Assembly: GCA_965230895.1 (NCBI GenBank)
Contig: OZ246394.1
Span: 778,627 to 831,954 of the forward strand
DNA: 53,328 nt
Direction of reading: 5' to 3'
From: an uncultured Gammaproteobacteria bacterium
GTDB lineage: Bacteria; Patescibacteriota; Microgenomatia; Levybacterales; UBA12049
The notes beneath the pieces are model-generated. The model did not search any database, was not told the DNA's origin, and saw only the letters and a list, made by a program, of their open reading frames with translations. Shown one piece after another: positions 25,454 through 52,195 of this stretch. Within the stretch, counting starts at the first letter, position 1. Each line of letters opens with the position of its first letter. Both the position numbers and the translations under genes were made by a program.

Positions 25454-25530
25454 GGCCCCATCGTCTAGCGGCCTAGGACGTCAGGTTCTCATCCTGAAGA
25501 TCGCGGGTTCGATTCCCGCTGGGGTCACCA
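25454..25530 (+). tRNA. tRNA-Glu (anticodon CTC), CCA encoded
   Basis: Hand-folded. Acceptor GGCCCCA/TGGGGTC, D stem GTCT/GGAC, anticodon stem TCAGG/CCTGA with loop TTCTCAT, 5-nt variable loop, T stem GCGGG/CCCGC with loop TTCGATT, discriminator A plus CCA. Confidence 0.9.
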
Positions 25531-27044
25531 AACGCGACGCTTGTGTCATTAAGTGATCGAATATATTGATATAATGGGCTAATCGTGGTGTTCGAAATGC
25601 CTGGATAGCTCCATGACAGTTTTGAGGCAAATATCGAACTCAGCAAGATTTTTTGTAAAGTTAGGTTCGAATTCGTATATGTTTGCCCCAAGTTTTCGAA
25701 ATACTCTTTTATAAAAGATATAATATCTTCAAGATTATATTTTCTAAGTAGTACATCACTTTTAGCTACCTGTAACGCCGTTATTTTCTCTTCTAGAAAT
25801 TTATTTTGTTCTCTGAATATTTCGTCCGAATATATGCCACTGAGGTTTTTTTCAATCAAGGCTTGTCGTAATGCATAGAGCTTGGTAAGTTCTGTATCCG
25901 CTTCATCTTTTTTCTTCTGGAGTTGTGATAGCCTTTTTATATACGTTCGTCGTAACAGTGCTATAAAAAGCTTAAGACACTCTTCCGTAGGTGTTACTTC
26001 CTCCAATAGCTCTATTAGCTTTTTGTGAACATCTCCAACTGCAACAGAGGAAGCTCCGCATCTGTCTCTACAAAAATAGTAGGCATAACGACTTGTCTTC
26101 CCCTTTGACCATGCACCTGTAAAAACCATGCCGCATTTACCACAAGTCATAACTCTTCTTAAAGGAAAATCCGTATTGTCTTTATTTTTCTTGGCAAGAG
26201 GAGTTGCTATATTGGTATTCCTTCCGTCCAAGATGGCTTGTATTCGATAGAACTGTTGTTCTGTTACCATAGGAGGGTGTTGACCTCTAATCTCTTCAGG
26301 AGATTTTGTTGAAGTTAAAATTCCCATATAGAATTTATTTCTAAAAATTCTATTTACTGTTTGTTTAACAATCAGATTTTCTTTCCCTTTCAAGGTTATA
26401 CGAAGTCCTAAATCATTCATGATTTTTGCCATTTCAGCAAGAGTCTTGCTTCCTGTTGCCATTAATTCCCATGCTTGTTGCAATTTATCGAATGTTTGAG
26501 GGTCTTTTGTTACATAGCCATTTTGATTAAGGTAACCAAATGGTACAACTCCAGTGTGCAGTCCAGCAAGAAATCTTGCTCTCATACCGTTTTTTGTTCT
26601 TTCTGATCTAACATCATTATCAAGCTGTGCAAAACCTGCAAGCATTGTTTCAATAAGTTTTTCTGTTGGGCTATTTCCTGTAGGTTCGGTAGCTGAAAGT
26701 AAGGTAATTTCACATTCTGCTAATTTTTTTCTGATCGCTAAATAGTCAGCGGTTTGTCGCGAAATACGATCAAGTCTGTAAACAAAAACAGCACTGAAAG
26801 ACTGCTTATTTTTTCTACAATATTCAAGGAGTTTGATAAGAACAGGTCTGCCAAGAATAGTTTTTGCAGATCGACCTTCTTCTTTAAATACTTCTATTAT
26901 TTCAAACCCTCGTCGTAAAGCTTCTTTTCGACACAATTCCTCTTGTGTTCCAAGAGAGAAGTTATCTACCTGTTCTTCTGTGGAAACGCGTAAATATATT
27001 ATGGCTTTTTTGGGTTTTACATCATCTTTGTAGGCATTCATCAT
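25473..27044 (-). CDS. Large serine recombinase (integrase)
   Basis: AIIYLRVSTEEQ (catalytic Ser), VFVYRLDRISRQ, recombinase domain, zinc ribbon CGKCG..YYFCRDRC, long coiled coil. The last 19 codons plus the stop lie on the reverse complement of tRNA-Glu. Confidence 0.9.
   Translation of the reverse strand: MMNAYKDDVKPKKAIIYLRVSTEEQVDNFSLGTQEELCRKEALRRGFEIIEVFKEEGRSAKTILGRPVLIKLLEYCRKNKQSFSAVFVYRLDRISRQTADYLAIRKKLAECEITLLSATEPTGNSPTEKLIETMLAGFAQLDNDVRSERTKNGMRARFLAGLHTGVVPFGYLNQNGYVTKDPQTFDKLQQAWELMATGSKTLAEMAKIMNDLGLRITLKGKENLIVKQTVNRIFRNKFYMGILTSTKSPEEIRGQHPPMVTEQQFYRIQAILDGRNTNIATPLAKKNKDNTDFPLRRVMTCGKCGMVFTGAWSKGKTSRYAYYFCRDRCGASSVAVGDVHKKLIELLEEVTPTEECLKLFIALLRRTYIKRLSQLQKKKDEADTELTKLYALRQALIEKNLSGIYSDEIFREQNKFLEEKITALQVAKSDVLLRKYNLEDIISFIKEYFENLGQTYTNSNLTLQKILLSSIFASKLSWSYPGISNTTISPLYQYIRSLNDTSVAFGDPSGNRTRDLQDENLTS
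25521..25530 (+). repeat. Left copy of the 10-bp direct repeat GGGGTCACCA (candidate attL core, tRNA 3' end)
   Basis: Exact 10-mer also present at 52186-52195 in the same orientation. Confidence 0.5.
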
Positions 27045-27325
27045 TAGGTTGTTTTAAGTAATTCCTGTAACGTTTTTCCTTCAAATGTTTGCCTTTCAAA
27101 ATCATCAAGCCATGTGTCTGCAAGGTGTTCAAAGTCTGCAACAAGACACTCTAATTGTTCGTCTGTATATTGATTAGCAGTATCACCAAGAATTGTTCTT
27201 GCTTTGGCTGTCTTACTTTGTTGTTGAGGCTCAGAAATGAGGCTATTCAGTGCTTGAAATGATGTATTTGTTAAATCTAAAGTCTGCATACTATTACTAT
27301 CAATATATGGATAGTATATATCCAA
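27044..27325 (-). CDS. Small acidic hypothetical protein, translationally coupled to the recombinase (TAATG overlap)
   Basis: 93 aa; its stop overlaps the recombinase ATG by 1 nt. Confidence 0.5.
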   Translation of the reverse strand: MDIYYPYIDSNSMQTLDLTNTSFQALNSLISEPQQQSKTAKARTILGDTANQYTDEQLECLVADFEHLADTWLDDFERQTFEGKTLQELLKTT

Positions 27326-27399
27326 ATAGGGATAGTTGTCAAGAGGAAATTAGGCTTTTACCACGCAAAAGACATCGATAATAGCAAACACTATGAGGA

Positions 27400-28209
27400 T
27401 TAGTTATAGAAGACTATTTTGCCGCGCTGTACGGACTTTGTAGAGACTTTTTTATCTTCGGTACGTATTTCATAATAAGACTCTATTTTATTGTTTCTCA
27501 GGCTTTTGAAGGACGCCGCATACATTTTATTTTGCATAGGGTAAATTACGTTGATGAGGTCGTCAACAGATGAACTCATATTATTCACCATTATCGATGC
27601 CTTTTGCGTGGCAAAATCATATTCACCGACATACAAAGTATCTTTATCATAATAGATGGCTGTAATGACCTTTGATGATTTATAGACCTGCTCTTGAGAA
27701 AGCGTTTGGGTATTTATGACGAGTAGTTCATTGTCTTGTTTGTTTGTATCTGGGCGGGTAACACAGAAGATTTCTGTTGAAGATTTTATAAATGCTTGGT
27801 CACACAATATATTTAAATTCTTCTTATTATAATATGTTTCAAAACCTAGCTTATTATAAATTGAGTTTCCTTGGAAGTAGTCCAAAATAACTTCATTCAT
27901 GTCCTTTTCTTTCTTTTTGGTTTTCATATTGTATATCTCAGACTTCCAATCATTAGGATGTACGACAATGAGATAGGGATAATGAATTGATATACGATCC
28001 GGGTATAGAGACAATTGTTCTTTTAAAGAGAAAAAAGTTAATGTAGGTTGTGAAAAAACAACGATATTATCTACTGCTTTTTGTTGCTGTATTTTTGCAG
28101 GAATATATTTTAAATACATGACGATACCGTAGATAACGAAAAAAGCTATCACGATAAGCAATACTCCAATCTTTAACTTATTTCGTGTTTCAGTACTTAG
28201 ATCATTCAT
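27400..28209 (-). CDS. Bitopic membrane protein (T4SS-associated, VirB8/TcpC-position analog)
   Basis: Single N-terminal TM (IGVLLIVIAFFVIYGIVMYL) plus a ~220-aa outside domain. Function inferred from position only. Confidence 0.4.
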   Translation of the reverse strand: MNDLSTETRNKLKIGVLLIVIAFFVIYGIVMYLKYIPAKIQQQKAVDNIVVFSQPTLTFFSLKEQLSLYPDRISIHYPYLIVVHPNDWKSEIYNMKTKKKEKDMNEVILDYFQGNSIYNKLGFETYYNKKNLNILCDQAFIKSSTEIFCVTRPDTNKQDNELLVINTQTLSQEQVYKSSKVITAIYYDKDTLYVGEYDFATQKASIMVNNMSSSVDDLINVIYPMQNKMYAASFKSLRNNKIESYYEIRTEDKKVSTKSVQRGKIVFYN

Positions 28210-28681
28210 ACGTAACTTTCGTTGGTTTCTTTTTGAGCTTCGTTACCACAATATGCTCATCCTCTTGCCCGTTTCTTCGTGTATAAAACAGAGTTTGTGT
28301 CAATGACTTTATTCGTGTCACTTCGTTGCCATGGTCATCTACAAAAGATTGGTGATAGGTATTTTCTTTTATAAATAATTTTGATATGAGTGCAAGAGGA
28401 AGGAGAAATTGCGGAAAGAGCAATATGGCTATAAAACAATATCCAGATAAAACATGATTGGGAACATTATGCGCAAAAGAAAATTTATTCACAACCTTTA
28501 ATAGTGAATGCTCAAGGTACGGAAATATTTTCCAGAAAAAGAACACATAGACGGTACACGTAAAAAGCACAGTTAAAATATCACGTATCGACTTATCTGG
28601 TAAGTAATAACAATACCAAATGGCAAGTCCCGTAAAAAATAACAGATATGGTTTAAACAAGAGTTTTTTTAATATTTGCAT
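28202..28681 (-). CDS. Polytopic small membrane protein (T4SS operon)
   Basis: 3-4 hydrophobic helices; overlaps neighbours. Confidence 0.4.
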   Translation of the reverse strand: MQILKKLLFKPYLLFFTGLAIWYCYYLPDKSIRDILTVLFTCTVYVFFFWKIFPYLEHSLLKVVNKFSFAHNVPNHVLSGYCFIAILLFPQFLLPLALISKLFIKENTYHQSFVDDHGNEVTRIKSLTQTLFYTRRNGQEDEHIVVTKLKKKPTKVTYE

Positions 28682-28684
28682 AGC

Positions 28685-29440
28685 TTATTGTATATACCCT
28701 AACGGATTAACCGGTGTCCATACTCCATTATTATTGACTCGAATTTCATAATGTAAATGTTCACCAGTCGTAAATCCGGTATCACCCATCGTTCCAATTG
28801 GTTTGCCTGCCGTTAATGTCTCGCCACTGGTTACAAAGATTTTATTTAAATGCATATCTATTGTTTTAATCGAATTATCATTATTCAAAATCTCGACGGT
28901 ATGCGATCCATATTGGTCAACATAATAATTTACTTTTCCATTCATGGTTGCGTATACGGCAACATCACCAGTGGTCTTAAATGTTGCATTTGACTGATAA
29001 TACGCATCATCAGGTACAAAATCAACTCCTGTATGAACTCCACCAAAAAATGTATAGCTTGGATCCATAAACCCTGCTGTGATTTTAACAAATGTTAAAC
29101 CTGATCCACCTAAAGGATTTTGTATTGGAATATCTGTAGAGACAAAACTACCATCTGCAGGGAGTGAGATATTACTTGCGTTGGCATTTTTGGTAAAAGA
29201 TGGATTAGTGAATATACCAATAATCGCAATAAACAAAACTACAATGAGTACGACTCCGTTGAGTAAAATCGTCAAAACCATTCCTCGAAATTGCACCAGC
29301 AGTTCGGCAGCTAAAGGGAATGGGATAAAGATATAGGCAACAGCTCGAACTATCCAATCCAAAATCAACTCAAATGGATTATTTAGGAGAAGCTGTCCTT
29401 TATCCACTACGTTTTTTAGATTATAAATGTGCTTGACCAT
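28685..29440 (-). CDS. Membrane-anchored M23 peptidase (cell-wall hydrolase of the transfer apparatus)
   Basis: HTGVDF and GEHLHYEIR metal-ligand motifs, with N-terminal TM helices. Confidence 0.8.
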   Translation of the reverse strand: MVKHIYNLKNVVDKGQLLLNNPFELILDWIVRAVAYIFIPFPLAAELLVQFRGMVLTILLNGVVLIVVLFIAIIGIFTNPSFTKNANASNISLPADGSFVSTDIPIQNPLGGSGLTFVKITAGFMDPSYTFFGGVHTGVDFVPDDAYYQSNATFKTTGDVAVYATMNGKVNYYVDQYGSHTVEILNNDNSIKTIDMHLNKIFVTSGETLTAGKPIGTMGDTGFTTGEHLHYEIRVNNNGVWTPVNPLGYIQ

Positions 29441-29441
29441 C

Positions 29442-31607
29442 CTAGTTACTCTTCTTCATTTCAATCAGACTATCCTCATGGGGAAGAGACAAAATATCAA
29501 CACGCATATGTTCATTTTGTCGATAGAGAACAATCTCTCCAATCTCAAGTTCTCCCAATTGTCTTTTCTCCTCATCAGTCATTGGAAATATATTTTCCAT
29601 CAGCGGTATTGTTGCATAAGATTGTTTCAGAAGAATTTTTGTTTCCGAATTGGTAATAATTGCTTTGCCTAAATCATTATCAAGAAAGTCCTGAATGTCT
29701 TGCGTTATGGAGACAACTCCCATGTTTCGTTTTCTTGCTTGTTTGACAAGCTTTCTATAAAAGACTGCAACATCCGTATCAACCAGCAAATTGTGTGCCT
29801 CATCAATAAATAACATTTTCTTTCGTTTTGATCGTTGATTAGACAAACTCCAAATGAGTGAGGTAAGTAAATACATTGCTGGTGCTTTTTCTTCAGTTTC
29901 GCCAAGAGGAGAAAGATTGAAAACAATAAGATCATTATCTAAATGAATTTCTCGCTCTGCATTAAAAACACCTTGTAGACTTCCTTTGTCTAAAATCATT
30001 AAATCTGCATGCATCGGTGTTCCCTTTAACTCTTTTAAGAACATTGAGAATGTTGGTTTAACCTTTGGATACTTCTCGTAAAGCTTTACTAAGACATTAT
30101 CGAGAACCGCACCGTCATATCGTTCAGTACGAATAAAGAATTTGAAAAAGGTTTTGAGAACCCCAATGTGATCGAGAATATCATTTGGATCATCGGAGGC
30201 AATCGAAAAAGGATTAATGCCATTATCCCGTGAGAAATCGACAACTTCTCCACCCATTTCTTTTGCAAAGTGTATGTATTCTCCTTCAGGATCAATGATG
30301 ATGATTTGTGTATTTCGCATATAGAGTCGTGTAGCAAGTAGTTTTGCTGTCACCGATTTTCCCATACCGGATTGTCCGAAGATGTTAATGTTGCTATTAT
30401 TAATATTTCGTTCATCAATAGTGAAAGGATTTACAAACACTAAACTGTTATGGTATCGATTCACACCAAGAAAAATTCCTTTTGGATCGTGAATTTGTTT
30501 GGCGACGAATGGTGTGAGATAGGCAACTGCCGATGATTGTAATATCCTATTTTGATTCAGACGATCTTCATTAAATGGTAGCGTAGTTTCAAATGCCTTT
30601 TTCTGTCCATAGATATATTTAGTTAAGGTAAGTTCAAGTCCATCAGTAAAATTCTTTAACTCTTTGTGCAGTTGTTTTAATTCATTTTTATCTTGCGCTT
30701 GAATGGAGAGGTAGAACGAATAGATAAATCCTTTTTCATACTCATGCACAAGTTCATAAATAAATTGGCTTATCTCCTCAATACTTTTCTCGACCTGTTG
30801 ATCTTTGAGTTTTCCTTTCTGCTGCCGTTCTGATTGCTTGAGTTCTAGGACAGATAACCGCTCTTTTGCTTTTTTGATCAGCTCCTGGCTATTTGAAGGC
30901 TCAATAAACATACTGATCGTGAATGGTAAGTGAGATGTTGCAAGTTTGAAGAGAACATCATCAGTTAAAAACGCTGGTACATCGGTTAAATAATAGGTTG
31001 CAATTAACTTCTCATCCAAGGTAATATGCGTACTTTTCGCTTTTGTATTTTCTGGTTTGTACAATCGTGCGCCATTAGCATCCAGCCGAATACCATCTTG
31101 GATTTTGCCAAGGGTGATATTCATTTCTGATCCTTTTGCTTTCGTCAGTGCGTCTTTGTATTCTTGTTTTTCGTAACGATATAATCGTATATTTCTCATT
31201 AATGTCTTGGGAGAAATAGACCATAAGAGTTTAGGCTCTGTAAGTCCAATAATGGGATTATTAATGGCTTTGTCTACGATTTGCTCGCGATACTGTTCGA
31301 GTAACCCTTCCAAACGCTGAATTTCCTGTTTATATATTTTGAGTACTTTCTTCTCTGTTGTCGCAAGTGGATGGTTCTCTAATTTTTTCAATTCCTCAAG
31401 TCCACCATAAATTTCCTGATTATGAGAAGCGAGTGTTTGGATCTTTTGTAATGTTTTGTTTTCATATCCAATTTTTTCTTGCAATGCTTCTAACTTTTGA
31501 GCTGCAATTTTATTCTTGCTCTGCAGATCTGCATAGAGATGTACACCAAGATCAAATTGCAGTTTCTTCTTTTTCAATTTGGTAAGTAATGAATCTTTCT
31601 TTCTCAT
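29442..31607 (-). CDS. VirB4/TrbE-like T4SS ATPase with N-terminal coiled-coil extension
   Basis: Walker A GQSGMGKSV and Walker B MLFIDEAHNLL. About 190 N-terminal residues are heptad-like and K/E/L-rich. Confidence 0.85.
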   Translation of the reverse strand: MRKKDSLLTKLKKKKLQFDLGVHLYADLQSKNKIAAQKLEALQEKIGYENKTLQKIQTLASHNQEIYGGLEELKKLENHPLATTEKKVLKIYKQEIQRLEGLLEQYREQIVDKAINNPIIGLTEPKLLWSISPKTLMRNIRLYRYEKQEYKDALTKAKGSEMNITLGKIQDGIRLDANGARLYKPENTKAKSTHITLDEKLIATYYLTDVPAFLTDDVLFKLATSHLPFTISMFIEPSNSQELIKKAKERLSVLELKQSERQQKGKLKDQQVEKSIEEISQFIYELVHEYEKGFIYSFYLSIQAQDKNELKQLHKELKNFTDGLELTLTKYIYGQKKAFETTLPFNEDRLNQNRILQSSAVAYLTPFVAKQIHDPKGIFLGVNRYHNSLVFVNPFTIDERNINNSNINIFGQSGMGKSVTAKLLATRLYMRNTQIIIIDPEGEYIHFAKEMGGEVVDFSRDNGINPFSIASDDPNDILDHIGVLKTFFKFFIRTERYDGAVLDNVLVKLYEKYPKVKPTFSMFLKELKGTPMHADLMILDKGSLQGVFNAEREIHLDNDLIVFNLSPLGETEEKAPAMYLLTSLIWSLSNQRSKRKKMLFIDEAHNLLVDTDVAVFYRKLVKQARKRNMGVVSITQDIQDFLDNDLGKAIITNSETKILLKQSYATIPLMENIFPMTDEEKRQLGELEIGEIVLYRQNEHMRVDILSLPHEDSLIEMKKSN

Positions 31608-32422
31608 AGTGTATTTCGAAATTGACTTTGAAAATAAGTGATAAGCTGCTTTTCTGTTAATTGCATTGTTTGAATTCGTTCGAGTGCCAAGCTACTTGTA
31701 AACCGTCGTTGTGTATCATCCAGTTTCTGTGCTGCTTCCAGAAAATGTTTATCATCAGTTCCAAGAAGTGGTACTGAGAACACAGCATAGTATTTCATCA
31801 GTTGAAAAGTATTTTGCTCAACAAGCGCAGAAAGCTCTTTAATATAATTCTCAACTAATCCATTAACCTTCTCATTTGCAGTTTCGTAAAGTGAATAATA
31901 ATGTTCGTGATAGTCTTCAACAGTTGCTGTTTCTTTTCGTGAAATGAGCTGCACTTTCATTGGAAGTGTATGAAGCATCGTTTTTATATGATGATAATAT
32001 CGCTCCCGTTCTTCATCATTGAGAAGAGCGATATCAAATGGGCGTATTTCATAAACGGCAATAAGTTTTTTCTTACGAATTATATAATTACCTACCACCT
32101 TAAAATCTCCCGTTGTTTTCTCAAGCTCTCTCATTGTGAATTGCTTCTTTGCAAAGCTATATGATACTGCTCGAGGTATAATTTTATATAACGGTTGATG
32201 ATCAATCTTCAGTGTTGCCACGAGTGCATAAAAAAGTTCTACAAGAAAAATTGTTGCGATAATAAGACCCACTTGATCAACTCTGAGAACAACTTTATAC
32301 ATGAGTAGTGTGAGGAGTGCTAATGCTATACCTCCGATCAAAAAGACCACGGTATCGGTAAAGAACATTGTTCTAAAAATATGTTCTCGTAGATTATCTT
32401 TATAGACGCGTATTGTTCTCAT
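31604..32422 (-). CDS. VirB3-like membrane hairpin protein with cytoplasmic domain
   Basis: Two TM helices, then a domain resembling the VirB4 N-terminal region (IAVYEIRPFDIALLNDEERERYYHHIKTMLHTL). Lies directly upstream of VirB4 with a 4-nt overlap. Confidence 0.5.
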   Translation of the reverse strand: MRTIRVYKDNLREHIFRTMFFTDTVVFLIGGIALALLTLLMYKVVLRVDQVGLIIATIFLVELFYALVATLKIDHQPLYKIIPRAVSYSFAKKQFTMRELEKTTGDFKVVGNYIIRKKKLIAVYEIRPFDIALLNDEERERYYHHIKTMLHTLPMKVQLISRKETATVEDYHEHYYSLYETANEKVNGLVENYIKELSALVEQNTFQLMKYYAVFSVPLLGTDDKHFLEAAQKLDDTQRRFTSSLALERIQTMQLTEKQLITYFQSQFRNTL

Positions 32423-33957
32423 TTTTTAGTATTTCCTTTCTTCTCCTGTTGTATAGAGTGTTTAAATGGCTGTCTTACTCTTGGTTGCTCAGAACTAGGT
32501 TCATTCTTCATAGTGGGCTGGTTAGGAAAGTGAGAATTGTAACTGCCCCGTTTTATTGTTGAGAAATGTGTACGTGATTGTTTCGACTCTTTATCAGCTT
32601 TTGCAGATTGTATATTTGTACCCTGTGATTGTGGAGTAGCAGTTTCAGTCTGATTTTTTGTTGGTCTTTTCTGCATTGATTCTTTTCTCTCCTGCGTCGT
32701 GTTTTTTGTATAAGTTCGTGATGATTCAGTATGGGTGTTGTTTGTCGATTGTTTATTGGTATTTGCAGAGCGATACCCAGAATCTTTATATTCAGTCCCT
32801 GATGCATTTGGCATGTTTCTATCAGCAGTAGGCTTAGTACTTGGTTTTAAAAGTCCAATCTTGCGACCAATATATGTCCCAGCATAACTCCTTGCTCCAA
32901 CAGCGTGTCCTGTTATCGCACCACGTTTTATTTCTCGAACACTACCAGTTAATGCGCCGCTTCCCATCATACTTTGCGCATTGGCACTCATCATCGACCA
33001 CCCGTCACCGAAAATACGGCCGATAAAGATGTTAACCCCTCCTAGAAAAATCAGTGATCCCGAGAAAAGGAAAAGTGTTCCCATTGATCCACCATGTGAG
33101 GTAATAATACTGCCGAGGAGTGAGGAAACAATAGCAAAGCCTAAGACAAAAGCAGGTTGTTGAATGAGGAATGTAAACCATGTTTTAAAATATGTATTGG
33201 TAATATTTTCTGTTTTCTCGGAAAGTGCAAAGGGGAGCACAAGTGGAAAGATAACACTTAAGAAGAGGAGGGAGATAAAGCGAATCATTGCTTGGAAGAC
33301 AATGTAGAGAAAACCGATGAGAAAGAAGCCAATGGCAATAATGAGGACAATCATTTGAATAAGCGTATTGCCATTAACAATAAGCGTTGGGAATTGAGAT
33401 GACATTCCAGTTAGTCTTCGAAACTCCTCCGTATTGACATAAGCTTGAACAAAGGTTGCTATGTTATAAGCATTTTGCGCGATAATTTTTTCATTAAGGA
33501 GATTAATAAACTGAATGCTATATGAAAGAATAGAAGGGGTTACAATGAAAAGGACAACAACAAATACTAATCGTTTGAAGAAGTTTTTTAACTGCATCGT
33601 ATTATCGTGTGTAATATGTGAGAGCGCAGTATAGGAGACGATCAGCACAAAGATTGGAATTGCGATATCAGAAAAGATTGTTCGAAATTGACTGAGTCCT
33701 GATAATGCTGTTCCGTCTTTAAGAGTGATTGTATCTCCAAGTAATTCAGGTGTGTTAAAAATTAGTCCACTTGAAACCCAATCAAACCCAGAAAAGAAAC
33801 TGTTGAGTACACCACTTCCTGATGCCTGCGGTTCATTTGTAACATTTTGCTGGATAGATAACGTTGGAGAAAGTGCTTGAGCGTTAACTGGTTTTACCCC
33901 AAGAAGAAATACGATGAGAAGCAAAAAAATGCTAGACAATACTTTCATGGATAACAA
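32419..33957 (-). CDS. VirB6-like polytopic channel protein with long disordered C-terminal tail
   Basis: Signal peptide (..VKPVNAQA), about 6 TM helices, and ~150 aa of T/S/N/K/Q-rich low-complexity tail. Confidence 0.55.
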   Translation of the reverse strand: MLSMKVLSSIFLLLIVFLLGVKPVNAQALSPTLSIQQNVTNEPQASGSGVLNSFFSGFDWVSSGLIFNTPELLGDTITLKDGTALSGLSQFRTIFSDIAIPIFVLIVSYTALSHITHDNTMQLKNFFKRLVFVVVLFIVTPSILSYSIQFINLLNEKIIAQNAYNIATFVQAYVNTEEFRRLTGMSSQFPTLIVNGNTLIQMIVLIIAIGFFLIGFLYIVFQAMIRFISLLFLSVIFPLVLPFALSEKTENITNTYFKTWFTFLIQQPAFVLGFAIVSSLLGSIITSHGGSMGTLFLFSGSLIFLGGVNIFIGRIFGDGWSMMSANAQSMMGSGALTGSVREIKRGAITGHAVGARSYAGTYIGRKIGLLKPSTKPTADRNMPNASGTEYKDSGYRSANTNKQSTNNTHTESSRTYTKNTTQERKESMQKRPTKNQTETATPQSQGTNIQSAKADKESKQSRTHFSTIKRGSYNSHFPNQPTMKNEPSSEQPRVRQPFKHSIQQEKKGNTKK

Positions 33958-33977
33958 GATCTTTCAAAGGCAGAGGA

Positions 33978-34235: not shown

Positions 34236-34245
34236 ACGTTAGATA

Positions 34246-34282
34246 ATAAAAAAGCCCATGTATTGCGTTTGCAATAATGGGC
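34246..34282 (-). terminator. Intrinsic-terminator-like hairpin plus U-tract
   Basis: Minus strand reads GCCCATTATTGC-AAAC-GCAATAcATGGGC followed by TTTTTT. The hairpin is 34254-34282 and the T-run 34248-34253. It ends 12 nt before the ATG of 33978-34235. Confidence 0.6.
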
Positions 34283-34301
34283 AAGTTATTTGTTGAAGTA
34301 T

Positions 34302-42039: not shown

Positions 42040-44265
42040 TTAAATTTTCACTCGCTTTAGAAGTAGCGAATTTGTAACTACAGATATTGAACTACTTGCC
42101 ATAGCTACAGAGGCAAAAATAGGATTAAGGAGAGGTCCTCCAAATGGAAAGAGAACCCCCATAGCAACGGGAATGAGCACGATATTATACCCAAATGCCC
42201 AGAACAGATTCAGTTTTATTGTTCGCATTGTCTTTTTAGACAGTTCAAACGCTGCTGCTACACTTCGCAAATCTTTATTAATAAGTGTTATATCAGCAGC
42301 TTCAATGGCAATATCAGTTCCTGTTCCCATAGCTATACCCACATCAGCAGCCGCAATTGCAGGAGCATCATTAATTCCATCACCAACCATTGCTACTTGT
42401 TTGCCTTCTGCTTGTAATTTTCGTACTTCTGCTTCTTTCTGATCAGGTAAGACTTCAGCGAGTATTCGTTTAATTCCAAGTTGCGAAGCGATAGCCTTTG
42501 CTGCTCTTTCGTTATCACCAGTGATCATAATAACTTCTATGCCTCGTTTTACAAGCCGAGCAACGCCCTCTTTGGCTGTATCCTTAATCGTATCTGCAAC
42601 GGCAATCAGCCCAAGGAGCTTTCCCTCAGATGCAAGAAGCATAACTGTTTTGCCTTCATTCTCAAGTTTCTCAATGTCATACTGAACTTGTTTCAGGATC
42701 TCTATTTTCTCTCTATCCATTAATCGCTTATTGCCAAAGAATACTTTTCTCTTTCCGATAGTTCCTTCAACCCCATGTCCAGCAATACCATTAAACTTTG
42801 TTACAGGGAAGACTTTTACTTTCTGAGTTTCAGCATATTTTACAATTGCTTCAGCTAGTGAATGCTCTGAGCCTTTTTCGATAGATGCAGCAAGTTCTAA
42901 TACATCATCCTTTTTAGCTTTATTGAGTGGAATAATATCCGTTACTTCAGGTTTACCTTTGGTAAGCGTGCCAGTTTTATCAAACACAATTGCAGTTATC
43001 TTATTAGCAATTTCCAAACTGGATGCTTCTTTGAAAAGTATCCCATGTTCCGCACCTTTTCCAGTACCCACCATAATCGCTGTTGGAGTAGCCAATCCCA
43101 TTGCACAAGGACATGCAATGATAAGAACTGCTACTGTATTAAGTAGAGCAAAAAGAAATGCAGGGTTTGGACCAAATATATACCAGATACCAAATGTTAA
43201 AAAGGCAAGCATAATAACTATTGGGACAAAGTAGGATGAGACAACATCTGCAAGCTTTTGGATTGGTGCTTTACTGCCTTGTGCTTCTTCGACGAGCTTT
43301 ATAATTTGAGCAAGCATAGTATCTGAACCTACTTTAGTCGCTTTATAGGTAAAGGATCCGGTTTTGTTGATCGTTGCCCCAATGACCGTGTCTCCTTTTG
43401 CAATATCGACAGGTATACTTTCTCCTGTAACAACCGATTGATCGATACTTGATTCACCATCAATGACCGTTCCATCAACTGGGATTTTCTCACCTGGTCT
43501 TACTCGAAGAACATCACCAATTTGTACCTCTTCAAATGGAATATCCACTTCTTTGCCCTCTCGTATTACTCGGGCTGTTTTTGCTTGCAGTCCAATGAGT
43601 TTTTTAATCGCCTGAGAAGTTCCTGATTTCGCTTGGGCTTCAAAATACCTCCCTAAGAGAATAAGTCCAATGACGATCACAGAAACATCGAAATAGGGCA
43701 TATGTTCTATACCTAAGTTCATGACCACTTCAGGGAAAAATGTAACAAATACTGAATATGCAAAAGCCACTGTTGTTCCAAGTGCCACCAATGTATCCAT
43801 GTTTGCTGTGCGATGTTTTAAAGCAGGTATTGTTGCCTTATAAAATTCTAGTCCTGCCCAAAATTGAATTGGTATAGCAAGCAATAATTGTGTGAAAGGA
43901 TTTTGCAAGATTGCTGGTGCTGTATTCATCAAACCGGGAAAACTTCCCCAAAGTAAAAACGCTCCAGAGGTCAGACTAGCAATAACCTTTACTTTGAGAT
44001 TGGCCAGCTCTTTTTTCTTTTCTTCTTCTCTCAGTTCTTCATTTTTTTCTTTGAGATCTAATGTATATCCTGTTTGAGAAACTGATTCAGCAAGCTGCTC
44101 TGGAGTGCAGTTATTTTCATCATAGGTGACAGTTGCTTTTGTTGTTGCTAAATTCACTACAGCATCTGTAACCCCAGGTGTTTTCTTCAACGCCCGTTCT
44201 GTAACTCTAACACATGAAGCACAATGCATGCCTTTAATTGGAAATGATTTTTTAACTTCACTCAT
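42040..44265 (-). CDS. copA: Cu(I)-translocating P1B-type ATPase
   Basis: HMA GMHCASC, CPC in the TM region, [15 protein letters not shown]. Confidence 0.95.
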
Positions 44266-44267
44266 AT

Positions 44268-44627
44268 TTATGTAACTATGATTTTCCCATGGAACATATT
44301 CATACCACAGGCAAAACCAAATTCTCCTTTCTCTTTTGGCGTTACTTCAATCGTAACTTTTTTATTGAGCGGCAAATATTTTTTGATGCGGAAATCTCCT
44401 AATACAACTTCTTCCAAACAACTTGAAGGGTCTTTTCTCGTGAATGAAATTCTTGTAGTTTTATTTACGGGTATAGAAATAGTATTGGGAGAGTAACCAC
44501 CTTCAACTGTAATATCTACAGAGTCAGTAACAGAAAAAACTTCTTCTTTTTTCATGAGGAAGAACCAATAAGTAAAGGTCATTCCTGCTAGCATAAATAG
44601 TGCGACTAAAATTTTATCAAGTTCCAT
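44268..44627 (-). CDS. Membrane-anchored cupredoxin-like domain protein
   Basis: Start moved to MELDKIL (SD AAGGAGGT upstream). [17 protein letters not shown], the same C-x-M-x-M-F-x-G motif as the tail of 35511-36560. Confidence 0.6.
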
Positions 44628-44680
44628 AATTTGTGTTACCTCCTTGGAAGAAGCGCAGATTTGCACCTCTTCTAAAAAGA

Positions 44681-45103
44681 TTACTGGGTAAATCCCCAAT
44701 CTTTTTGCCATTGTTGCATTTGGCTAATTTCACTTTCTTGTGCAGAAATAATGTTTTTGGATAGATCTTTTATTTCTTGATGACCTGCATTTGCTTCAGC
44801 TGCTTTTGCCATCTCAATAGCACCTTGATGATGAGCAATCATTCCTTCAATAAATGCTTTATCAAAATCATCACCAGACTTACCTTCTAAAGCAGTCTTC
44901 ATATCTGCCATACTCATTTGATCCATTGTCGTACTACCATGAGTCATTCCTTCCATTGAGTCATTTGATGGAACCATCGCTGATGGTGTTGTATTAGTTG
45001 TTGCTAATTTTGAAGCGGCCGTCATTTGGCTTGCTACAACTGTTCCAGAAATTACAGCTCCTACAATTAAACCAACAATTCCATATGTTAATGTTTTTTT
45101 CAT
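44681..45103 (-). CDS. DUF305-family (ferritin-like four-helix) metal-resistance protein
   Basis: DKAFIEGMIAHHQGAIEMAKAA and ISAQESEISQMQQW. Confidence 0.75.
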   Translation of the reverse strand: MKKTLTYGIVGLIVGAVISGTVVASQMTAASKLATTNTTPSAMVPSNDSMEGMTHGSTTMDQMSMADMKTALEGKSGDDFDKAFIEGMIAHHQGAIEMAKAAEANAGHQEIKDLSKNIISAQESEISQMQQWQKDWGFTQ

Positions 45104-45122
45104 ATATTCACCTCCTTTACTT

Positions 45123-45911
45123 TTATTTTACCGTTACTATTCCCCCGATACTTGCGTTAATGTGATCGTGATATGTCCATACACCTTTTTTATCAAAGAC
45201 ATATCGATATATACTGCCTTTTTTCGTTGGCTTGAACTGGTCAAATGTTGGTAAATCTGTATGGGATGGATGGGGAGCTGAAGCAACCCACATATCAGTA
45301 CTACTTTCGTTAACAAATTCAACCATACTACCTTGAGTGACTTCAATTTTCTCTGGTATAAAACCTTTGTCAGTATATTTCACTTTTATCATACTTTGCA
45401 TACCAGCCATATTGTGGCCCAACATTGCTGAAGAATCACCTTCGGTAATAGTAGCGGGGAGTGATTTGCCTGTTTTAACATAATTAGCTGTCATCGTCCC
45501 GTTTTCGTCTAACATCGGACGGTCAAAATCATTAAATACCCCATCATCTCCATAATCCTCGTAAATCATCACAATAAGTTTTTTATTAGAAATATCTGCA
45601 TTTCCTAACGGTATAGTTATATTTGCGTATGTTCCTTTATCTAAAGGTTTACTTATCTCCACAACTTGACTTAGCTTATCTCCTTCCATCTCACGTACAA
45701 CAAGAAATCCTTTTTTTGATAAAGTTACGCTTTTAACGAGTACTTTATCTTTTGGTTCTTGAGGAAATACTTGTAATGTCTCTTGTTTTGTAGTCTTATT
45801 TCCTGATGCGTTCTTCTCATGTTTATCTGTCTGTTGATTAAAATAAAGGTAGAGTCCAAAAGCTACCATTAAAAATAGTACAAATGTAATTAGTATTTTT
45901 TGTATCTTCAT
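45123..45911 (-). CDS. Membrane-anchored protein with a C-terminal cupredoxin-like domain
   Basis: N-terminal TM. C-terminus FIPEKIEVTQGSMVEFVNES..HPSH..WTYHDHINASIGGIVTVK. Confidence 0.5.
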   Translation of the reverse strand: MKIQKILITFVLFLMVAFGLYLYFNQQTDKHEKNASGNKTTKQETLQVFPQEPKDKVLVKSVTLSKKGFLVVREMEGDKLSQVVEISKPLDKGTYANITIPLGNADISNKKLIVMIYEDYGDDGVFNDFDRPMLDENGTMTANYVKTGKSLPATITEGDSSAMLGHNMAGMQSMIKVKYTDKGFIPEKIEVTQGSMVEFVNESSTDMWVASAPHPSHTDLPTFDQFKPTKKGSIYRYVFDKKGVWTYHDHINASIGGIVTVK

Positions 45912-45913
45912 AT

Positions 45914-46186
45914 CTAACTTTTTTTCTTAAATACTTGCATTACTTCATTTATTGTTTCTTCTTTATTTCCTTTGCTAATCGCGTCCGCAACACAAGTCTT
46001 TAAATGGTTTTCTAGAATGACATTTCCAGTTTCCTTTAATCCGCTTTGCACTGCCTGCAATTGATGCATAACATCAATGCAATACGTGTCAGTCTCGACC
46101 ATGGAAATAACTTTATCAATGTGTCCTCGAGCAATCTTTAATCTGTGAAGAATTCGTTCTTGTTGATCTTTTGGTCTATAAGCCAT
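45914..46186 (-). CDS. csoR: CsoR/RcnR-family metal-sensing repressor
   Basis: RLKIARGHIDKV..DTYCIDVMHQLQAV..HLKTCV (C-H-C ligands). Start at ATG 46186-84. Confidence 0.85.
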   Translation of the reverse strand: MAYRPKDQQERILHRLKIARGHIDKVISMVETDTYCIDVMHQLQAVQSGLKETGNVILENHLKTCVADAISKGNKEETINEVMQVFKKKS

Positions 46187-46235
46187 ATATCCCCCCAATA
46201 GGGATATATTACTACACCCTGTAGGAGATTGTCAA
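46185..46235 (-). promoter_or_regulatory. Candidate cargo-operon promoter carrying two operator-like boxes
   Basis: Minus strand: TTGACA (46235-30), 18 nt, TAATAT (46211-06). The spacer holds TACTACAC-c-cTGTAGgA (46210-26, plus-strand reading). ATATATCCC-N7-GGGATATAT (46185-46209) overlaps the csoR ATG. Confidence 0.55.
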
Positions 46236-47119: not shown

Positions 47120-49606
47120 GTGTACAATTATCAATTATTTACCAATTTAGATAGTATTCCTAATCTCTTGTTTTTTACTTTTCTTTTTTGTTTCATGATT
47201 GCTCTCATTTGTAAGCTAATATATATCTGGCTAAAAATTCGCTCAAATTACTCATTGCTTGAAGTTATTCCACCACATACAGCCAAACAAAGTCCTTTTG
47301 CGACTGAACAGTTTTTTACGACATTGCATTCGCTAATACAACAAAGGTCAACTATTGAAAAACTTCTTGGAACAAAAAAACTCATTGCACTTGAGATTGT
47401 CTCGAGTAAAAATAGTGGTATAAGATTTTTAGTACGAGTAGTACATGAAGATGCAGCAGTTATCAAGAAATATATACTCTCGTTACTTCCCGGCGCACAA
47501 ATTGCTGTTGTTAATGATTACCTACCAATATCAACACAAGATAACTGGCGTACAGTTACGCTCAAATTAGCAAAACATTTTTCTCATTCTCTTCAGGAGC
47601 AAATACATCTCACTCAGCATGATCCAATGACATATATTACCGGACAAATGACCAACCTTGAGAAAGATGAACTTATTGCTGTGCAATATATTCTCACACC
47701 GGCAACGAAGCAAAGTATTCGACCTGAACTACTTCTTAATCTAATTGCATTTATCATCCTTACACCAACAACACTTGTGAGTTGGCTTATATCCCATGAT
47801 AAGAAAACAGAAGCACTTCCATTTTGGCTGTTTGCTACAAAGAAACATGATAAGAAAGATATTAACGAAAAAGTACAGAAAGAACTCTTTACAGCGACCA
47901 TCAGACTGTATGTGACGCAAACGGCCAGACAGCACGTAACAACTCGTCTCAAAGGGCTTGTTACATCCTTTGCAAGTTTCCGAAGTGCGAACCAACAGGC
48001 ATTGCGTGTAAAGAAACTTTTGTCAATGTTTGCAGAGACTTCTTTGCTGAAAACAGTATTCTTTCTGCAACTGAAATATCGACTGCTTTCTCTAACAAAT
48101 AATCCTGTCCTTTCCACTTCAGAAGTTGCTGGGCTGTTTCATTTCCCAACAGCTTTGAATCAAACAGAAGATATTGTTAAAAGTAAATCCACTATTCTAC
48201 CTGCACCACTTAGTCTGAAAAGGACTGATAAACCATACGATATATTTTTTGCTCAGAATATTTTTGCTGAGACAGTAACTCCAATAGGTCTTACTAAAGA
48301 TGAAAGACGACGACATGTTTATGTTTTAGGAGCTACTGGAATGGGGAAGACAACACTTCTTGCAACAATGATCCGAGAAGATATTAAGAATGGTAAAGGT
48401 GTCTGTGTTATAGATCCTCATGGGAATTTAATTGAACAGATATTACCACTTATTCCAAAAGAGCGAGCAAAAGATGTCATTCTTTTTGACCCAGATGATA
48501 CTGAATTTCCTATTGGTCTCAATTTGCTTGCACTTCCAAAAAATCTTTCGAGTCAGGAGCTTCTACGCCAAAAAGAGCATGTCACGAGTAATCTCATTTC
48601 GGTTATTACAAAAATGTATGCTGCCCGCTTTACTGGGCCAAGAATGGAATATATTCTTCGAAATACGATTCTCACAGCACTTGAAACAGAGCAGCCAACA
48701 CTTTTTACTATCCAACAACTTCTTGTTGATGCCCCATATCGAAAAAAGGTTGTAGCAACACTCAAGAGCCCGATGCTAAAACTCTTCTGGACCAAAGAAT
48801 TTGCCCAAATGGGATCGTTCCAAAAAGCAGATGCAGTCGCACCAATTACGAACAAAATTGGTAAGTTTCTCACATCCTCCCTTGCAGCTAATATCCTCGG
48901 ACAAAAAGAAACAAAGCTTAATTTCTCAGATATTATGGATTCAAATAAAATCCTGTTGTGTGATCTCACAAAGGGGAATATAGGGGAGGATATGAGTACT
49001 ATGTTTGGTTCTCTCATTATTGCAGGAGTCCAACTTGCCGCACAGCGCAGGGCAAGAATTCCTGAAAAGCAAAGAGTGGATTTTTACTTATATATCGATG
49101 AATTCCAAAACTTCGCAACGAGCTCGTTTGCACAAATTATGAGTGAAGCAAGAAAGTATCGGCTCAATGCTATTTTGGCACATCAAACGATTGCCCAAAT
49201 AGAAGATCATGACTTGGTAAAAGTGATTCTTGCCAATACCGGAAGTATTATTAGTTTCCGAACTGGTGGACCACTTGATGAAGAATTTATCCTGCCATTC
49301 TTTGCACCCAATGTCGCCAAAAATGAAATCACCAATCTAACGCCATACCATTTTTATATGAAGATCAATAATGATACGCCGCAAGAGTGTTTTTCAGGAG
49401 AAACAATCTATCAAGAGATTCCAGAAAAGAGAGCATTCATCGACCAAATGAAAACCCACTCAAAAGAACAATACGCAAGTAATAAGAAACAAGTTGAACA
49501 AGAAATTCAGGAAACATTTCTGAATCAGACATCCATACCCAAACGATCAAAAGAGATAAAAAATACCATGAAAAAAGACTTACCAGAAGAGCAAATTCCA
49601 TACTAA
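47120..49606 (+). CDS. VirD4/TraG/TraD-like type IV coupling protein with a long N-terminal membrane extension
   Basis: Walker A GATGMGKTT, Walker B YLYIDEFQNF, RKYRLNAILAHQTIAQ. N-terminal ~370 aa with TM helices. GTG start as in the track is uncertain. Confidence 0.8.
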   Translation: MYNYQLFTNLDSIPNLLFFTFLFCFMIALICKLIYIWLKIRSNYSLLEVIPPHTAKQSPFATEQFFTTLHSLIQQRSTIEKLLGTKKLIALEIVSSKNSGIRFLVRVVHEDAAVIKKYILSLLPGAQIAVVNDYLPISTQDNWRTVTLKLAKHFSHSLQEQIHLTQHDPMTYITGQMTNLEKDELIAVQYILTPATKQSIRPELLLNLIAFIILTPTTLVSWLISHDKKTEALPFWLFATKKHDKKDINEKVQKELFTATIRLYVTQTARQHVTTRLKGLVTSFASFRSANQQALRVKKLLSMFAETSLLKTVFFLQLKYRLLSLTNNPVLSTSEVAGLFHFPTALNQTEDIVKSKSTILPAPLSLKRTDKPYDIFFAQNIFAETVTPIGLTKDERRRHVYVLGATGMGKTTLLATMIREDIKNGKGVCVIDPHGNLIEQILPLIPKERAKDVILFDPDDTEFPIGLNLLALPKNLSSQELLRQKEHVTSNLISVITKMYAARFTGPRMEYILRNTILTALETEQPTLFTIQQLLVDAPYRKKVVATLKSPMLKLFWTKEFAQMGSFQKADAVAPITNKIGKFLTSSLAANILGQKETKLNFSDIMDSNKILLCDLTKGNIGEDMSTMFGSLIIAGVQLAAQRRARIPEKQRVDFYLYIDEFQNFATSSFAQIMSEARKYRLNAILAHQTIAQIEDHDLVKVILANTGSIISFRTGGPLDEEFILPFFAPNVAKNEITNLTPYHFYMKINNDTPQECFSGETIYQEIPEKRAFIDQMKTHSKEQYASNKKQVEQEIQETFLNQTSIPKRSKEIKNTMKKDLPEEQIPY

Positions 49607-49707
49607 AAAGTGTCTATAACGTTACACACAAATAATGGTTAATATTGAGGCTATTATTTAAAAAAGTCTGTCACCCTATCCCTATAAAGAGAGATGAAAT
49701 AATATTT

Positions 49708-50478
49708 ATGCAAAATAAAGATATCACCAAAACGCAAAACAGCATCTTCTTCCTACTCTATAAATTCCGTTTCCTTCATACCAATCAAATCCAAAAACTA
49801 CTCAATCACAAATATAATACACGCATCAATACATGGCTTAACGACCTCACAAAACAAGAATACCTCCAAAGACAGTATGATACACGAACCATTATTAAAA
49901 AACCGGCAGTCTATACATTAACCAAAAAAGCCCGAACACTCTTAAAATCGAATAACAGCTATTCACTGGCAGCCTTAAATAAAATCTATCGTGAAAAACA
50001 CCGATCACAAACCTTTATTACTCATTGCCTGCTTATTGCAGATATCTATTTAACACTGCTATCAAAAAACGGGAAAGACGAAACTATCACGTTTGAGACA
50101 AAAAATACTCTCTCGGACTATGACTATTTCCCCCAAGACATACTTGACGCCTATATCGCCATCAAAAGCCCAACGAGCATCAATCGCTACTTCACAACCG
50201 TAATTGATCCTACTCCTCGTCTGTATATCGCAAAAGGCATTGTACGGCAGTATTTTACCTATTGGCAAAGTAGCAATTGGGAAGAGAACACCGATAAGCC
50301 CTTTCCTGCAATTCTTCTCATTTGCCCTGATGAAAAAGTGCAACGAATGCTGGGTTATTACATTGCCAAAACACTCCATGAAGAACAATCAGATATACAT
50401 TTTTACCTTTCAACATTCGAGGAGGTAAAAAAGAGAGGATTTGTCAATATAACCACCGCTGTAGTATCTTTGGGATAG
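49708..50478 (+). CDS. Replication-relaxation (Replic_Relax-like) family protein
   Basis: N-terminal winged-helix-like IFFLLYKFRFLHTNQIQKLL and the general layout of this family. Lies directly after the coupling protein. Family call from memory of the pattern, not from a search. Confidence 0.55.
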   Translation: MQNKDITKTQNSIFFLLYKFRFLHTNQIQKLLNHKYNTRINTWLNDLTKQEYLQRQYDTRTIIKKPAVYTLTKKARTLLKSNNSYSLAALNKIYREKHRSQTFITHCLLIADIYLTLLSKNGKDETITFETKNTLSDYDYFPQDILDAYIAIKSPTSINRYFTTVIDPTPRLYIAKGIVRQYFTYWQSSNWEENTDKPFPAILLICPDEKVQRMLGYYIAKTLHEEQSDIHFYLSTFEEVKKRGFVNITTAVVSLG

Positions 50479-51518: not shown

Positions 51519-51603
51519 TTGAAAGATGCTTAATAAGAGTAAGATTGGCTAAATAAAAAAAGAAGAGTATAATGACGATTAAGTCTTAAAGCAGCCTAAA
51601 ACT

Positions 51604-51864
51604 ATGCCTAATACATCAATCAAGAATAAAGGATCTGAATGGAGAAAAGTGGATCTTCATGTTCACACACCCTCAACTAAACTTAATAATCAATACAAGC
51701 CAAATGGTGTTGATGTATGGGATAAATTCAGTGAAGAAATTGAAAAATCTGACGTAGCATGTATAGGCATAACCGATTACTATTCGGTAGATAACTACTT
51801 TACATTTATAGAAAAATTTAAAAGCAAATTCCCAACTTGCCTGCTTTTAATAACAGGCGATTAA
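51604..51864 (+). pseudogene. Truncated N-terminal PHP-domain fragment (of a large PHP-ATPase-type gene)
   Basis: WRKVDLHVHTPSTK..IGITDYYSV is the start of a PHP phosphoesterase domain. The ORF stops after 86 aa and no continuation exists in any frame. Confidence 0.5.
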
Positions 51865-51897
51865 AATATCATAAATAAAGTGATATACTATACACAT

Positions 51898-52110
51898 ATG
51901 GATAGCAAAGTTCAGAGAGAAGTTGGCAAAAAGCTTAAAGCAGTACGAGAAAAGAAGGATTTGACGCAAGTGGAAGTAGCAACGAAGGCAGACGTAAATG
52001 TAAATTATTACGCACGTATTGAACGGGGAGAAGAAAATCCCTCTCTTGATATCCTTCAGAGAATTATTAAAGCATTAAAAGTGAAGTCGTCCGAGATTTT
52101 ACCATTTTGA
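51898..52110 (+). CDS. XRE-family HTH regulator
   Basis: LKAVREKKDLTQVEVATKADVNVNYYARIERGEENP. The C-terminus ..EILPF parallels ..DLIPF of 46761-46988. Confidence 0.75.
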   Translation: MDSKVQREVGKKLKAVREKKDLTQVEVATKADVNVNYYARIERGEENPSLDILQRIIKALKVKSSEILPF

Positions 52111-52185
52111 GCGGGATTAATTTTGGTTATATTTCTCCATAAGATTGGTAACCCACTCTAAAAAGAGTTCGAAATAAAACTCATC

Positions 52186-52195
52186 GGGGTCACCA
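52186..52195 (+). repeat. Right copy of the 10-bp direct repeat GGGGTCACCA (candidate attR core)
   Basis: Exact match to the tRNA 3' end at 25521-25530. Confidence 0.5.

Follow-up and report, generated by a model that had tools for sequence, protein, structure and literature searches.

How does the recombinase gene of an integrative element come to run into the tRNA gene that the element occupies, and where does the native end of that gene lie? The question is raised by a 53,328-nucleotide stretch of contig OZ246394.1 (the window, meaning the whole stretch of DNA analysed), in which the open reading frame (ORF) of a large serine recombinase (LSR) gene, int, runs through one of two copies of a short direct repeat into the antisense of a tRNA-Glu gene. 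The two copies represent the cores of attL and attR, which bound an integrative conjugative element of 26,665 bp in the 3′ end of tRNA-Glu(CTC), and the host chromosome is that of a member of the Patescibacteria (candidate phyla radiation). We consider it very probable that the element is bounded by these attachment sites and was inserted by the LSR, that attP lies inside the int ORF, and that the C-terminus of the recombinase is exchanged upon integration.

The repeat, GGGGTCACCA, was found in exactly two copies in the window, both on the plus strand: the attL core at 25521-25530 and the attR core, an exact repeat of it, at 52186-52195. The identity is exactly 10 bp, with mismatches at the neighbouring bases on either side, and no longer direct repeat bracketing 25521-52195 was found. 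In dinucleotide-preserving shuffles the chance expectation was 0.01 copies, and two or more copies occurred in 0 of 100 shuffles, in agreement with an earlier annotation made by a model from the DNA letters (the sequence-only reading), which had judged the recurrence unlikely to be due to chance. The left copy forms the final 10 nt, CCA included, of tRNA-Glu(CTC), the integration target, which ARAGORN located at 25454-25530 on the plus strand.

The recombinase gene lies at 25473-27044 on the minus strand and, in the integrated form, encodes a protein of 523 amino acids with the Pfam domains Resolvase, Recombinase, and Zn_ribbon_recom. The resolvase catalytic domain (PF00239) covered residues 14-161 (E = 1.5e-31) and matched the catalytic domains of TP901-1 and Sin; in its YxRVS motif, which contains the catalytic serine, Y17, R19, and S21 were invariant in family alignments. 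The protein also contained a Recombinase domain (PF07508) and a zinc ribbon (PF13408) in which C301, C304, C325, and C329 were conserved. Sequence matches in PDB were the integrases of TP901-1, A118/LI, SPbeta, and Bxb1, and the best Foldseek matches were the SPbeta, Bxb1, phiC31, and LI integrases (E = 1e-18 to 4e-11). The Pfam domains, the sequence matches in PDB, and the fold all identify the recombinase as an LSR.

The int ORF runs through the left repeat copy into the antisense of the tRNA gene, so that the integrated form ends in ..AFGDPSGNRTRDLQDENLTS, the final 15 codons being antisense tRNA (AFGDP-SGNRTRDLQDENLTS). When the two repeat copies were joined in silico, the same frame gave an ORF of 530 amino acids ending in ..AFGDPDEFYFELFLEWVTNLMEKYNQN, or AFGDP-DEFYFELFLEWVTNLMEKYNQN; a different in-frame C-terminus at the predicted circular junction, as the sequence-only reading had proposed, was therefore reproduced (523 versus 530 amino acids). 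From this in-silico junction, the orphan 3′ end of int, comprising 22 codons (DEFYFELFLEWVTNLMEKYNQN) and a stop codon, was located at 52117-52185 on the minus strand, and becomes part of int only when the element is excised as a circle. The predicted stop codon of the circle form (52117-52119) is separated by 6 nt from the stop codon of the convergent XRE-family gene (52108-52110); all coordinates of the earlier annotation held, this gap being measured here as 6 nt. The predicted junction sequences are CTCATCGGGGTCACCAAACGCGAC for attP and GATTCCCGCTGGGGTCACCAGGAGTTCTAAT for the empty attB. An open 22-codon frame is weak evidence by itself, since we estimate its chance probability at p ~0.2 in such AT-rich sequence, and the weight for the tail therefore comes from the comparison with the family.

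AlphaFold2 modelling of the 530-residue circle form with a 33-sequence alignment gave a mean predicted local distance difference test score (pLDDT) of 77.9. In the model, two long helices (354-401 and 407-428) formed a coiled coil at 354-428, and an additional conserved domain (~438-496) was located beyond the zinc ribbon and coiled coil. Residues 502-510 had pLDDT values <50, and tail residues 513-528 formed a helix with pLDDT values of ~77-80. The final 22 residues are thus predicted to form an amphipathic helix joined to the body of the protein through a disordered GDP linker. The linker residues encoded by the core are GDP here and GEP, GRG, GAE, and others for other tRNAs. Because the crossover maps to this disordered linker, the core could vary with the tRNA target without harming the protein.

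Relatives of the recombinase were found in both forms. Uninterrupted int genes at four loci, L001 (P0010), L122 (P0128), L064, and L162 (P0007), ended in a DEFYFEL-like tail, and none of the four had a tRNA at the int 3′ end. In L001, the ORF continued through TGGTGACC into ...FESILLWIFKLMDAY... and was followed by a convergent XRE gene, which is the layout predicted for the circle of the window element. For two integrated relatives the junction was reconstructed: the far repeat copies, located 7-8 kb upstream of int, were followed in frame by FEPFLPWIQKIMLAY in L017 (tRNA-Glu, 11-nt repeat) and by FEPILLWLTNLMQAY in L032 (tRNA-Pro, 10-nt repeat). Moreover, both states of a single recombinase are represented in the records. 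P0029 (integrated) and P0128 (uninterrupted, 537 amino acids, L122) were 100% identical over 509 residues and diverged only after the core, where the former has a tRNA-coded tail and the latter the native tail. The alternative C-terminus, when aligned with homologues, was therefore found where the recombinase is uninterrupted, the integrated homologues ending in antisense-tRNA tails, and the L017 and L032 junctions agreed with the two-state pair in placing attP inside the 3′ end of int; both points had been predicted from the window before any relative was compared.

The native tails have the consensus FE(P)xLxWxxx(L/I)(M/R)xxY, which the tail of the window (FELFLEWVTNLMEKY) fits, and this motif was common to six independent attP-form tails and 39 metagenome tails. 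The latter were collected by matching metagenome DNA to the pattern of a Glu-type P arm, GGTGACCC-N13-TTCGAAC-N11-TGG, which gave 67 loci, 39 matches having the in-frame tail motif. About 30 orphan attR ends carried the tail motif with unrelated DNA upstream, indicating that most of the motif-bearing matches are attR ends. All 39 motif-bearing tails were open through the helix. The ratio of the proportions of nonsynonymous and synonymous differences (pN/pS) was 0.51 in tail codons 11-22, with pS near saturation at 0.68, and exceeded 1 in the spacer codons 4-7. A further motif, LPSRSLPxYYIxxIN, was retained by one subfamily at a distance of 30-45 codons (90-135 nt) from the core. A protein search with the tail profile gave only five short matches, two of which were useful (P0121 and P0122); these two and L052 are int 3′ fragments carrying tails. 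L052 was also considered as a third reconstructed element and was rejected, because its upstream copy is an int 3′ fragment with a tail, a remnant attP, and not an attR.

Some further tail-bearing or pattern-matching loci were observed in these searches. Thirteen loci (L085, L095, L104, L110, L126, L133, L136, L137, L139, L140, L142, L143, and L145) matched the P-arm pattern and translated as GFP/GLP/RFP-GDP-stop without the tail motif, and represent a recurrent unrelated sequence. L102 (1-1746) encoded a distant LSR with Resolvase and Recombinase domains and 19% identity to the Int of the window, and ended in the GDP core followed by a FEHFLPWIHKLMLAY...PSRSLSRHYIKKLN tail, which implies that the tail/attP module is common to very different recombinase lineages. 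Two attR-like tail segments in the same orientation (GDPTAKQFERTLSWLN[HK]LMLIYQKKDEE...) lay 2.8 kb apart in L117, at 2337 and 5117, and are probably remnants of successive insertions. In L064 (3533-5203 and 7605-9458), the uninterrupted, attP-form family int lay 4 kb upstream of tRNA-Pro(TGG), and a different LSR of 617 amino acids overlapped the tRNA. This suggests a tandem array in which a newcomer is located between the resident int and the tRNA, with the tail of the newcomer completing the resident gene.

Reading into a tRNA is not peculiar to the window. More than 1000 homologues of the recombinase were found at 60-87% identity, the sole named one being from Candidatus Woykebacteria, and nearly all of them ended in ...G(D/E)PxGxRTxD..., the antisense translation of the tRNA T arm (GIRTRD corresponds to GGGATTCGAACCCGCGAT). 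A genome scan gave 266 relatives, and the locus counts below were obtained from the best 80 of the 266. At 70 of the 80 loci, a tRNA gene on the opposite strand overlapped the 3′ end of int; the remaining loci were cut by contig ends (seven), had degenerate or uncalled tRNA-like sequence (L003 and L063), or were uninterrupted (L064). The targets were tRNAs for Glu (20), Pro (13), Leu (12), Gly (7), Phe (5), Arg (4), Lys (3), Ser (3), Ala (2), and Asp (1). The tRNA was read in the same frame, xxT GGN over CCA, in 71 of 71 cases including the window, which argues that reading into the tRNA is a fixed trait of the family and not an accident of the window. The integrated forms had arbitrary tails of 0-60 residues. 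The same anatomy recurs in more than 100 loci, with at least 10 tRNA species as targets. Most database entries for proteins of the family bear a spurious tRNA-encoded tail. The informative titles among the best 80 loci named Patescibacteria lineages, the rest being generic or thought to be mislabelled. Records titled "uncultured Gammaproteobacteria", "Pseudomonadales", "Flavobacteriales", and "Brocadiaceae" (L002, L007, L008, L013, L015, and others) carried the int-tRNA module, which is otherwise found only in Patescibacteria; the taxonomic labels of such metagenome-assembled genomes with titles outside the Patescibacteria are probably wrong.

To describe the recombination sites, we set x = 0 at the complement of the 3′-terminal A of the tRNA, with x rising into the tRNA. 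The identity cores covered x = 0-9 in the window, x = 0-10 in L017, and x = 2-11 in L032, and their overlap indicates a common crossover within x = 2-9, in the discriminator and the acceptor 3′ strand; the attL core of the window contains this overlap. In attB and attL, the B arm consists of the T arm and the acceptor 3′ strand of tRNA-Glu. Within the tRNA, this arm has TCGAAC, from the T loop and T stem, at x = 18-23 (GTTCGA at 25507-25512 in the window). In six independent P arms (window, L001, L017, L032, L052, and L064), TCGAAC was found at x = 23-28, which is 5 bp further out than the T-loop copy of the tRNA; from the aligned P arms, the T-loop-like motif of the window, TTCGAAC (x = 22-28), was located at 52167-52173 on the minus strand. 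In LI integrase, the attP motif for the zinc-ribbon domain is shifted by 5 bp away from the centre relative to that of attB (Rutherford et al., PMC3783163), and the offset of TCGAAC, as far as the P and B arms are concerned, matches this attP-versus-attB rule of LSRs. Two codon preferences were observed near the core despite the AT-rich genomes: the Ser just upstream of it was usually AGC (x = -11 to -9), and the Ala of the tail spacer was always GCA (x = 14-16). This bias suggests a constraint from the DNA binding site over the coding sequence. An ATTCG sequence in the P′ arm (x = -32 to -27) was also tried as a site motif and rejected, because the centre would fall outside the identity core; we take it as coding sequence for the I-R of YQxIR.

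Evidence for movement of the lineage came from another sample. L149 (2895-4490, JGI Ga0613619_010709) encoded an Int 96% identical to that of the window (490/512) with the same upstream gene order, on tRNA-Lys(CTT). Its DNA and that of the window were identical in the positions up to x = -1, and the core was TTGGGTGAGCCCC in L149 versus TTTGGTGACCCC in the window, differing at x = 0 (T to G) and x = 6 (C to G). The near-identical Int on tRNA-Lys indicates that the lineage moved recently. L149 may represent recent target switching or relaxed target choice, and the target may depend on very few bases. A left-flank contig, L157 (Logan SRR13076504), started exactly at x = 1 of the core, and four others broke inside the tRNA. 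The start of L157 may, weakly, reflect a branch of the assembly graph at which occupied sites coexist with empty or differently occupied ones. Runs SRR14271353, SRR14271359, SRR14271360, SRR14271366, SRR14271372, and SRR13076504 contained contigs with the same sequence as the window.

Several results weigh against the reading given above and are gathered here. The metagenome pattern fixes TTCGAAC and TGG, so that conservation at these positions is circular and only the other positions count. One attP-form relative, L162 (P0007), was without TCGAAC in its P arm. Neither the 71 sequences of the P′ arm nor the 26 of the B′ arm showed a clear mirror-image motif, and the site model is consequently based on one arm per site. 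The tail would not be essential for catalysis, because mobility, if the elements have it, requires excision from integrated copies whose tails are arbitrary. Finally, the searches recovered neither a circle junction nor an empty site for this element, an absence that weighs weakly, contigs being a poor proxy for reads. The attP, attB, attL, and attR junction patterns gave 0 matches in metagenome contigs; an exact look-up of the 530-residue attP-form protein in a collection of 15 billion proteins gave no record; the 260-residue and XRE proteins were not on record in the flank-gene search for an empty site; and all contigs with the left-flank 228-residue or the right-flank 60-residue gene were occupied or broken inside the tRNA. 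This lack of a circular junction or empty site, together with the occupied state of all Logan contigs of this population that span either end of the element, would also be expected of a fixed, immobile island, left by a past integration of which the repeat and the tail are relics, with a chromosomal int in decay. We consider such an island improbable, since int, the small ORF next to it, the type IV secretion system genes, the coupling protein gene, the Replic_Relax gene, and the orphan tail are all intact, and since the 96%-identical Int with the same neighbours at tRNA-Lys(CTT) points to recent movement; the contig starting exactly at the core adds a weak indication of site heterogeneity.

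A different objection is that the tail is a by-product of the conservation of P-arm DNA, the recombinase effectively ending at ~505 and the 22 residues being tolerated, with a split of the gene that has no regulatory meaning. The F-E of the tail is encoded by TTCGAA, itself the site motif, the fixed GCA and usual AGC codons point to constraint at the DNA level, and the spacer codons show pN/pS values above 1; the linker is disordered, integrated forms tolerate tails of any kind, and an open frame of this length is not rare by chance. However, the conservation of W, L/I, M/R, and Y reaches x ~66, far beyond a 25-bp LSR half-site, with the pN/pS of 0.51 there, and the subfamily with LPSRSLPxYYIxxIN conserves that protein motif at a distance of 90-135 nt outside the core. 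L001 retains both motifs although they do not coincide, the DNA motif (ATCGAACC) lying at x = 22 and that of the protein (FESILLW) following 7 codons later, and none of the 39 motif-bearing tails is closed before the end of the helix. On this balance we regard the by-product explanation as unlikely. Chance recurrence of the 10-bp repeat, with the true boundary located elsewhere, has a practically negligible probability: the repeat is short and the right flank extends over only 1.1 kb of the window, but 0.01 copies were expected, the right copy is followed by the P-arm motif of the family at the exact spacing and by the conserved in-frame tail, the XRE gene is convergent as in L001, and the host glycosylation genes beyond the right end match those of the left flank.

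With attP inside int as the preferred reading, a mechanism can be proposed. LSRs cleave with a 2-bp stagger at a central dinucleotide and need a directionality factor for excision. Recombination of the window element looks canonical for LSRs; the catalysis and the crossover dinucleotide we infer by analogy. From what is known of LSRs, Int dimers would bind attP and the attB of the tRNA, with the T arm acting as the zinc-ribbon motif of the B arm and the P arm being read through the TCGAAC copy placed 5 bp further out. Strand exchange would occur at a dinucleotide within x = 2-9 and regenerate the tRNA. Integration moves the 22 tail codons to the far end of the element, after which the gene reads 15 antisense-tRNA codons. 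The circle would then be the sole source of full-length Int, which would act in integration; the chromosomal Int without the tail, probably together with a small acidic protein, would carry out excision or keep the element where it is, in the manner of IntP and IntX of the Myxococcus phage Mx8. The gene for this protein (81-93 amino acids; 27044-27325, minus strand) overlaps the start of int, and tblastn detected it as a conserved partner immediately upstream of int in 80 of 81 loci. Neither it nor the other unknown ORFs had a Pfam or PHROG match. The small protein may act as a recombination directionality factor or as a partner of Int.

As to the function of the tail, our preference, which we hold tentatively and at somewhat less than an even chance, is that it tunes activity or directionality. 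A bolder proposal, which we find possible but doubtful, is that the tail helix is a sensor of the integration state, circle Int driving attP x attB recombination and chromosomal Int with its partner excising or resting, within a retargetable family that reads the T arm. If this were true, directionality would be partly written into the topology of the gene, the target tRNA would be set largely by a few core bases, giving the integrases of the family a natural capacity for retargeting, and in tandem arrays the tail of a newcomer would complete the truncated int of the resident, as the layout of L064 suggests.

The sequence-only reading had likened the arrangement to that of the SSV-type integrases. 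These archaeal (fusellovirus) enzymes have their attP within the integrase ORF, use a tRNA gene as target, and are encoded by a gene that integration partitions. The likeness stands for these three features and not for the rest: the SSV enzymes are tyrosine recombinases cut into two non-functional parts, whereas here a serine enzyme loses 22 codons and its catalytic and DNA-binding domains all remain in the 523-residue ORF. By analogy, a nearer precedent than SSV is the IntP/IntX pair of Mx8, a phage whose target is also a tRNA gene. According to the account in PMC6070905 (citing Tojo 1996 and Magrini 1999), attP of Mx8 lies inside the gene of its tyrosine integrase and integration gives int a new 3′ end (IntP to IntX); the same account describes the change of C-terminus as altering the properties of the enzyme without destroying it. 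The two systems share an attP within the 3′ coding region of int and the replacement of the C-terminus on integration, and Mx8 is an analogue of the present family and not a member of it: it has a tyrosine recombinase of a single phage, whereas the trait described here belongs to a whole family and to an LSR that is encoded by a conjugative element and uses short sites with a 10-bp core.

Among mycobacteriophages, Broussard and colleagues reportedly described in 2013 an integration-dependent immunity in which attP lies inside the repressor gene. There, too, integration alters the C-terminus of a phage-encoded protein and the form of the protein depends on the integration state, but it is the repressor that is truncated and the integrases are tyrosine enzymes. 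No ssrA-like degradation tag was found in the tails of the family analysed here. The LSRs of LI/A118, Bxb1, phiC31, and SPbeta share with the family the resolvase domain, the recombinase domain, and the zinc ribbon with an inserted coiled coil, and in phage LSRs the outer motif of the attP arm likewise lies 5 bp further from the centre than that of attB. Known LSRs mostly target protein-coding genes or intergenic sites and have attP outside int, and tRNA gene ends are regarded as the territory of tyrosine integrases; to our knowledge, serine integrases are not known for tRNA targets. Unlike the phage LSRs, the present family targets tRNA 3′ ends with the T loop as a site motif, and has an extra C-terminal domain (~438-496), a detachable tail, and attP inside its own ORF. 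A literature search of freely accessible full texts did not reveal any report of an LSR whose attP lies inside int, or of LSRs of Patescibacteria that target tRNA genes, and the earlier supposition that the arrangement is undescribed for LSRs was upheld to that extent. The pattern of attP inside int is thus a known one, present here in another class of recombinase and across a large family.

Serine integrases are the main tools for insertion of large DNA, and the control of their directionality is an active structural question. The recombinases described here form a large, previously uncharacterised family in which tRNA ends are targeted, the T loop serves as a site motif with a 5-bp offset, and the C-terminus of the enzyme itself is changed on integration. 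The family has also moved among at least 10 tRNA species while remaining ~60% identical. Taken together, these traits offer an experiment made by nature on how such enzymes recognise sites, change targets, and control directionality.

The remaining genes of the element were assigned with Pfam, and what was found bears out the earlier view of the DNA between the repeats as mobile. Mating-pore genes and unknown ORFs occupied 27400-35321 on the minus strand, with an M23 peptidase (28685-29440), a VirB4-like ATPase (29442-31607), TrbL/VirB6 (32419-33957), and a TrbC/VirB2 pilin (33978-34235), all on that strand. They were followed by a copper/redox cargo block (35511-46198, minus strand) comprising a DsbD-cupredoxin, cupredoxins, a sortase, DsbA, a BlaR/BlaI-like pair, a hydrolase, a CopA-type P-type ATPase (42040-44265, minus strand), DUF305, and a CsoR-type repressor. 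Four proteins of the cargo had cupredoxin domains, and the BlaR1/BlaI-like pair is a sensor-repressor pair. On the plus strand, a type IV coupling protein (47120-49606) was followed by a Replic_Relax-domain protein (49645-50478; E = 5e-11), a putative relaxase. A DUF2958 protein was also encoded between the repeats. The XRE-family helix-turn-helix gene (51880-52110, plus strand) was convergent with the int tail across the predicted attP, as in L001. The integrase, the att repeats, the VirB4-type ATPase, the coupling protein, and the relaxase that mark an integrative conjugative element were thus all found within the bounds, the relaxase being assigned from the Replic_Relax domain only.

A 2025 survey (PMC12102498) described most Patescibacteria type IV secretion systems as being without relaxases, mostly chromosomal, and not conjugative; recombinases and tRNA are unmentioned in it. 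The present element bears on that view, since at least some such clusters of Patescibacteria are located on elements that have att boundaries and encode a coupling protein and a putative relaxase. Replic_Relax-type proteins may be overlooked by MOB typing.

Both flanks of the element carried host envelope-glycosylation genes: GT87, PMT, and GT2 on the left and, in longer contigs, PMT_2 and an acyltransferase on the right. The right-flank ORF at 52508-53328 contained tandem repeats of ~370 nt with 74-79% identity, and in the longer contig L159 it formed part of a 653-residue protein without a Pfam match.

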